From positions 1 through 34,139 of the forward strand of contig JAAAOZ010000333.1 in the NCBI GenBank assembly GCA_009908585.1: a stretch of 34,139 bases of DNA. Reading direction: 5' to 3'. The notes under the pieces were generated by a model. That model did not search any database and was not told where the DNA came from. It saw only the letters and a program-made list of their open reading frames with translations. A program made the translations under genes and the position numbers. This DNA is from Chloroflexota bacterium. GTDB taxonomy: Bacteria > Chloroflexota > Anaerolineae > B4-G1 > SLSP01. How positions within the stretch are numbered: position 1 is the first letter of the stretch; each line of letters starts with the position of its first letter. Positions 11,918 to 11,968 of this stretch are shown piece after piece.

Positions 11918-11968
11918 GGTATGATTGAGTATTACAGATAGTATAAAGCGGTATGATCGAGTATTACC
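11918..11968 (+). promoter_or_regulatory. parC-like pair of 19-bp repeats upstream of parM
   Basis: GGTATGATTGAGTATTACA (11918-11936) and GGTATGATCGAGTATTACC (11950-11968), starts 32 bp apart. Confidence 0.55.

Follow-up and report, generated by a model that had tools for sequence, protein, structure and literature searches.

The stretch of DNA analyzed here (the window, 34,139 nucleotides, which is one entire contig, C428, of a Chloroflexota MAG) carries closely similar 19-bp sites in two settings, the leader of the actin-like partition gene parM and the DNA upstream of two promoters that head arrays of gene cassettes. This raises the question of whether one protein recognizes both classes of site, whether that protein is the ParR-like adaptor encoded directly downstream of parM, and what such binding would mean at the cassette promoters, whose sites have been proposed to be operators.

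Distribution of the sites

The six 19-bp sites reported in the first-pass annotation are confirmed letter for letter and position for position. Two of them lie on the plus strand in front of parM (GGTATGATTGAGTATTACA, 11918..11936, and GGTATGATCGAGTATTACC, 11950..11968), their starts 32 bp apart (11918/11950) as claimed, and the other four form two pairs, here called platforms A and B, in which the starts are 33 bp apart (1831/1864 and again 33946/33979), also as claimed. Site 1 of platform A, GGTATTACTGAGTAATACC (1831..1849), is a perfect 9-1-9 palindrome, G GTATTAC TGA GTAATAC C, and is accompanied by site 2, GGTATGACTGAGTAATACC (1864..1882); platform B has identical copies of site 1 at 33946..33964 and of site 2 at 33979..33997. 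The likeness between the two classes, put at 16 of 19 positions for the sites at 11950 and 1864, holds as well, with the mismatches at positions 8, 9, and 15. Since both platform pairs lie inside a 276-bp repeat whose copies (1747-2022 and 33862-34137) are 94% identical, they count as one duplicated unit and not as two independent occurrences.

The motif is confined to these places. A degenerate 19-mer pattern has 10 strand-matches in the window where shuffled window DNA predicts 0.01, a position-weight scan of the window finds no further paired sub-sites beyond the three loci, and the motif search that had been suggested for the contig, when widened to the whole MAG (2.67 Mb in 511 contigs), returns the six sites and nothing else, even when 4 departures from the perfect palindrome are allowed.

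Anatomy of the motif

The 19-mer, G-GTATTAC-TGA-GTAATAC-C, is composed of two 7-bp sub-sites of the form GTA-N-TAC, each of them self-palindromic, with centers 10 bp apart; for any one half-site, such a palindromic half would arise by chance at about 1/64. Judged from the letters, this layout would suit a dimer of dimers. In the parM leader the sub-sites form an array (11919-11978) of four strong and two weak members with a period of ~10.6 bp: the first 19-mer contributes GTATGAT (11919-11925) and GTATTAC (11929-11935), both strong; a weak GTATAAA (11940..11946, plus strand) stands between the two 19-mers and fills the gap in helical phase; the second 19-mer contributes GTATGAT at 11951 and GTATTAC at 11961, again strong, and a weak AAATTAC follows at 11972. 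The six starts, from 11919 to 11972, are spaced 10 or 11 bp, and these steps place the whole parM array on one face of the helix. The sub-sites of platform A start at 1832, 1842, 1865, and 1875, and of the two classes of site it is the platform one that comes closer to the family consensus (AGTAATACC).

The partition genes and the parM leader

The gene behind the array, parM (12002..12976, plus strand), encodes an actin-like ATPase with Pfam matches to ALP_N (4.7e-23) and MreB-like_C (2e-10); 733 ParM homologues were found, from Anaerolineae MAGs, and many of them are named ParM/StbA by the source. A second, partial parM-like gene is present in another contig of the MAG (C414:342-749, minus strand), where residues 40-174 are matched at 64% identity. 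The ORF of the ParR-like adaptor (P0004, 91 aa; 12979..13254, plus strand) begins 2 bp after the parM stop, and its product combines an N-terminal strand-helix-helix pattern, RRSFSLD..., with an acidic C-terminal tail, EDPELAAALDNLGI. The features of a type II (ParMRC) system are present, namely an actin-like ParM, a small downstream adaptor with a conserved tail, and repeated cis sites.

Promoter scanning of the parM leader gives ATGAAA-16-TATGAT with a TG upstream, and the predicted extended -10, TGGTATGAT (11917-11925), lies inside the first parM 19-mer. Position 8 of the motif is T in the parM sites and C in the platform sites, and it is the T that yields TATGAT with its upstream TG, so that the departure of the parM sites from the consensus is explained by the C8-to-T change that creates the extended -10. 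The parM sites would then be sub-sites under the added constraint of serving as a promoter, and the predicted -10 embedded in them fits an operator, which may double as the centromere.

In the AF2 monomer model of ParR (16 homologues; pLDDT 66), residues 1-15 are extended and are followed by helices at 16-23 and 28-44, by a longer one, and by one in the tail; the predicted model agrees with the RHH pattern, whose strand pairs in the dimer only. Pfam RHH_1 is matched weakly by 4 of 16 ParR homologues (best E 2.8e-4), a Pfam search with the window ParR itself gives no match, a sequence search of solved structures returns the RHH domain of NikR at a weak E of 0.15 and otherwise coiled-coil noise, and Foldseek with the monomer model finds nothing. 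Membership of the RHH group (CopG/Arc/MetJ) is likely, not established. The adaptor family has a common N-terminal strand motif (RRSFSLD, RKTFTFD) and a tail, EDPxLAAALDxLG, that is kept in 16 homologues and is the sort of peptide that would be expected to dock ParM. The strand residues differ among the homologues (RRSFSL, IVTIAL, VTYSLK), whereas the sub-site, GTAATAC, is constant; were the bases read by the strand alone, the two would be expected to covary, and their failure to do so would argue against ParR as the binding protein.

The cassette platforms and their element

On the platforms, reading leftwards on the minus strand, a terminator is followed by the two palindromes, the promoter, and low-GC cassette genes separated by attC-like sites. 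The promoter of platform A (1769..1797, minus strand) consists of TTGGAT (1797-1792), a 17-bp spacer, and TATAAT (1774-1769), and that of platform B (33884..33912, minus strand) has the same two hexamers; the terminator is a strong intrinsic one (1945..1973, minus strand; a 13-bp stem, then T7), at which the upstream operon, poor in adenine, stops short of the sites. Between 1900 and 3200, the window holds a 1.2-kb stretch with 5-7% T on the plus strand and ~70% GC that ends at this terminator; no other long segment of the MAG is like it. An attC-like site on the minus strand, at 32350-32290, has paired arms, GCCTAAC...GTTGGGC, and different low-GC genes stand behind each platform copy. Integron-like features of the platform are the attC-like sites, the common promoter, and a docking point; the 30 largest ORFs of the window include no integron integrase or recombinase domain. 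The first cassette genes (1018-1587 and 32795-33781, both on the minus strand) encode secreted or anchored proteins without a Pfam match, whose C-terminal domains appear by eye to be related (..EY.SG.W.. / ..DC..Y.FDN.G.L.V..), and one cassette contains three tandem 66-bp units (32392-32589; 100% and 67% identical to the reference copy).

The site pairs do lie upstream of both cassette promoters, as first described, at 34-85 bp upstream of the -35; with transcription assumed to start ~7 bp after the -10, they fall at about -69 to -120, with sub-site centers near -73, -83, -106, and -116. Their designation as operators of the cassette promoter is not upheld by these distances: the parM sites overlap the predicted extended -10, the platform sites lie outside the core promoter, and since the latter stand entirely upstream of the -35, repression by occlusion is unlikely. 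The two platform copies differ by 18 mismatches in 278 columns, and the 38 columns of the sites are free of them; among the 136 columns nearest the promoter, all 10 mismatches fall in the 98 that lie outside the sites (p about 0.03).

The palindromic form and the surroundings of the platform sites also invite a structural explanation, in which they are hairpins (a back-up terminator, or a structure in transferred ssDNA) or accessory sites of a recombinase, and their likeness to the parM sites is incidental. The platform sites do fold (-8 to -8.5 kcal/mol, z -3.6 to -4.8), a terminator precedes them at a short distance, and integron-like cassettes with attC-like sites adjoin them. The parM sites, however, fold no better than shuffles and yet have the same sequence, order, and spacing, so that the feature common to both classes is sequence and not structure; moreover, no T-run follows the hairpins, the 30 largest ORFs are without a recombinase domain, and the docking point is 80-130 bp from the sites with the promoter in between. 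The reading as hairpin or terminator was rejected because the parM sites do not fold, and the explanation as a whole, recombinase sites included, is considered very improbable.

Pfam searches elsewhere in the window find two FtsK/SpoIIIE-like ATPases and ArdC-like, RadC, DdrB-like, and SNase-LTD proteins, together with the methylase and the specificity subunit of a type I restriction-modification system, and the contig looks like a conjugative plasmid or an integrative element of an Anaerolineae bacterium, the taxon being taken from the source names of the ParM homologues. The palindrome GAAACCGGAATTTTTCCGGTTTC is present in three copies at 10583-10758, in or beside a winged-helix ORF (10235-11086), and in a fourth at 29034-29056; these copies could be iterons marking an origin of replication or transfer. 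The contig ends lie in the contig's own repeats (1-136/31408-31543, 96%; 1747-2022/33862-34137, 94%), and no continuation of the window is found in the other contigs of the MAG. Both platforms may belong to one molecule as separate copies, or they may be alleles of a single locus, joined during assembly, on a circle of ~31-32 kb.

Sub-site arrays in related par loci

The comparison set comprises 27 distinct par loci of Anaerolineae in which ParM is 36-72% identical to that of the window. Nine of them (L014, L016-L018, L029, L031, L035, L037, and L041) carry GTA-N(1-2)-TAC in the parM-parR gap, at most 70 bp after the parM stop and directly upstream of parR, which against a background of 0.96% corresponds to a binomial p of 3e-12, and two or more gap sub-sites are present in 4/27 (p 4e-8), with the limitation for both values that the loci are kin and not independent, although their ParMs share only 36-70% identity with that of the window. 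The gap arrays read AGTAATACC..GGTAGTAC..AGTAATACC in L029 (10647-10686), AGTAATAC..GTAGTAC..GTAATAC in L018 (10961-11010), and GTAATTAC..GGTAATACC in L035, and L041 has a series of GTATATAC; those of L014 and L031 are found at 10973-11019 and 10965-11031, respectively. A mid-operon position between parM and parR is unusual for the centromere-like array of a type II locus. The window differs from these relatives in that its array is upstream of parM, in the classical position, and in that it has further clusters outside the par locus.

In L010/L011/L012 and in L028, an array with TGGTATGAT and AGTAATAC(C) heads the operon containing parM-parR, and most occurrences of the 8-mer AGTAATAC in ~390 kb of related loci belong to such arrays, the others being three isolated single copies in L009, L013, and L033. 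The recurrence of arrays across the family ties the motif to the par module and makes ParR its likeliest binder, a conclusion to which we give somewhat better than an even chance. In L010 (2290-2720) and L028 (6960-7420), the sub-site array is found just inside an element: a tRNA-like stretch is recognizable by eye at L010:2300-2375, with a similar one at L028 ~6970-7045, and each is followed by a small HTH gene (HTH_17 in L010) and a terminator. Both look, from their sequences, like integrated elements still carrying parMR.

Exact scans of public genome and metagenome contigs for the two-site pattern gave no match, and a cassette platform bearing such sites was seen in none of the relatives; when the platform DNA was compared with 61 related genomes, only fragments of the cassette-proximal element were matched, in one genome of the same genus. 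The degenerate one-site pattern gave two single matches in 400 genomes of the class (G186 and G082) and three for the reversed control, and these were treated as chance. The site in G186 lies on a 1.6-kb contig, without a second site, upstream of two small genes that are HEPN/nucleotidyltransferase-like by eye.

The closest relatives

Close homologues of the window ParR in a large protein collection are two only, 92% (L006) and 81% (L007) identical, and in both of them residues 2-19 and 26-45 are the same as in the window. No GTA-N-TAC array is present in the 60-320 bp upstream of their parM genes, the contigs being only 1.8 and 3.2 kb long; instead, an HTH_17 gene precedes parM, flanked by palindromes of the form TTAACAC-N-GTGTTAA (L006:1-40 and 283-300; L007:238-256). 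Alignment with these relatives identifies a decayed remnant of the palindrome before parM in the window, ATTACACGGCGTTAG (11974..11988, plus strand), and homology between the window and both relatives begins at ~11972, immediately to the right of the two 19-mers. With the HTH_17 gene absent from the window and the palindrome decayed, the regulatory module has probably been swapped. Because the DNA-binding region of ParR is identical while the palindrome has decayed and HTH_17 has been lost, the TTAACAC palindrome fits an operator of the lost HTH_17 protein rather than a ParR site. The absence of the motif from L006 and L007 was at first taken as refuting ParR as the binder, a view that was overturned by the wider set of relatives, and parC may lie elsewhere in these two elements, given their short contigs.

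The same boundary bears on an explanation by common descent only, according to which a two-site module of ~52 bp was copied between the platform and the parM leader as the HTH_17 segment was replaced, and one or neither class of site is functional now. The start of homology just right of the sites does place them in a swapped-in segment, and the spacers keep a residual similarity (GATAGTATAAAGC versus GATGATAAGCGCCC). Nevertheless, the sites are 82% identical (31/38 positions), whereas the spacers are only about half identical and the flanks are unrelated, which argues for selection on the sites; the parM-specific change is systematic and makes the -10 element; the two copies of the platform differ elsewhere but not in the sites; and the arrays in other elements suggest that the sub-site is functional in the family. 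Descent without present function in both classes is thus held to be improbable.

Which protein binds the sites

A further possibility is that a different regulator, such as the HTH_17 or winged-helix protein of the element or a protein of the host, binds the 19-mers as a simple dimer, so that parMR and the cassette promoters form one regulon and ParR acts elsewhere. Palindromes of 19 bp with a 9-1-9 form are typical of operators for HTH dimers, HTH_17 proteins are common in related elements, and the arrays of L010 and L028 lie just downstream of an HTH_17 gene; in addition, the closest ParR homologues are without the motif at parM, and the sub-site is conserved across ParR proteins with different strand residues. 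Against this stand the nine independent, if related, loci with arrays in the parM-parR gap, several of which have no ORF ending beside the start of parM in a crude scan. Furthermore, the sole HTH_17 protein of the window (4169-4381) has no alignable similarity to that of L010, and the self-palindromic half-sites fit two dimers rather than one. A regulator of this kind is judged unlikely.

The reading preferred here, on balance the probable one, is that the ParR-like adaptor (12979-13254) would recognize all six 19-mers. Of what the first-pass annotation had proposed, the idea of one protein for both classes of site is strengthened by the comparative linkage of GTA-N-TAC arrays to parM-parR and weakened by the closest ParR homologues, which are without the motif at parM; the choice of the ParR-like product as that protein is the most plausible one by comparison, but the RHH fold attributed to it is weakly supported. 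Each GTA-N-TAC sub-site would take one ParR dimer, each 19-mer would hold a dimer of dimers, and the two 19-mers of a pair would stand in helical phase. At parM, ParR on the array would repress the parMR promoter, as an autoregulatory operator, and the array would probably serve as the centromere, like a classical parC. At the platforms, ParR would form small extra segrosome-like complexes, acting as accessory centromeres or as sites of ParR loading or titration that set the level of free ParR; loading is suggested because the platform sites do not overlap the core promoter, and any effect on cassette transcription would probably be modulatory at most and not occlusive. The alternative proposal of extra centromere-like sites at the platforms accordingly fares better than that of operators, as it fits the geometry better; a regulatory role of the platform sites is conjecture. 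A ParM-type adaptor acting plasmid-wide from high-affinity platform sites, with the platforms as the main centromeres or with cassette expression tied to the ParR level and hence to copy number and partition state, is a speculative extension that we consider doubtful.

If ParR binds at all three loci, the window would hold a type II system whose adaptor sites are dispersed beyond the par operon, and in this uncultured lineage of Chloroflexota the plasmid segregation machinery would be physically linked to arrays of integron-like cassettes. If it does not bind the platforms, the motif still marks a small regulon in which the cassette promoters are joined to the partition operon. Beyond the window, the GTA-N-TAC sub-site offers a usable signature for locating the centromeres of the widespread ParMR elements of Anaerolineae.

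Comparison with known partition systems

ParR of R1 and of pB171 binds repeats of 10-11 bp, ParR-B of pJIR4165 has two 8-bp repeats 3 bp apart, and the known ParR sites are described as direct repeats (PMC9426499). Like the type II parC/ParR systems of R1, pB171, pSK41, and the pCW3-like plasmids of Clostridium perfringens, the window has an actin-like ParM followed by a small adaptor and short phased repeats in the parM leader that overlap the predicted promoter, and its sub-sites are comparable in scale to the repeats of pJIR4165. Unlike in those systems, each sub-site is itself a palindrome and the pairs form inverted repeats, only 4-6 sub-sites are present at parM, and two more clusters occur 10 and 22 kb away, at the promoters of unrelated cargo.

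Sites dispersed over a plasmid are familiar from KorB, the ParB of IncP RK2, whose palindromic OB operators are scattered around the plasmid, in part at long distances upstream of promoters. KorB is both a global regulator and a centromere binder, a large HTH ParB of type Ia that acts with co-repressors, and is unrelated in sequence or fold to the ParR of the window. To our knowledge, plasmid-wide action of a partition protein has so far been known only for ParA-type systems, those of omega and KorB.

The closest precedent is omega, the RHH ParB of pSM19035, a small RHH centromere-binding protein with several clusters on one plasmid. It has clusters of sites in three promoter regions, belonging to different operons, can activate or repress according to occupancy, binds as a dimer of dimers, two per site pair, and couples partition with gene control (PMC9499535, PMC4627068). 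Its partner is a Walker ParA (type Ib), as against the ParM of the window; its sites are runs of 7-10 contiguous 7-bp heptads that overlap the promoters, whereas the platform sites of the window are upstream of the core promoter; and the genes under its control are those of replication or toxin-antitoxin systems, whereas in the window they would be the cassette cargo.
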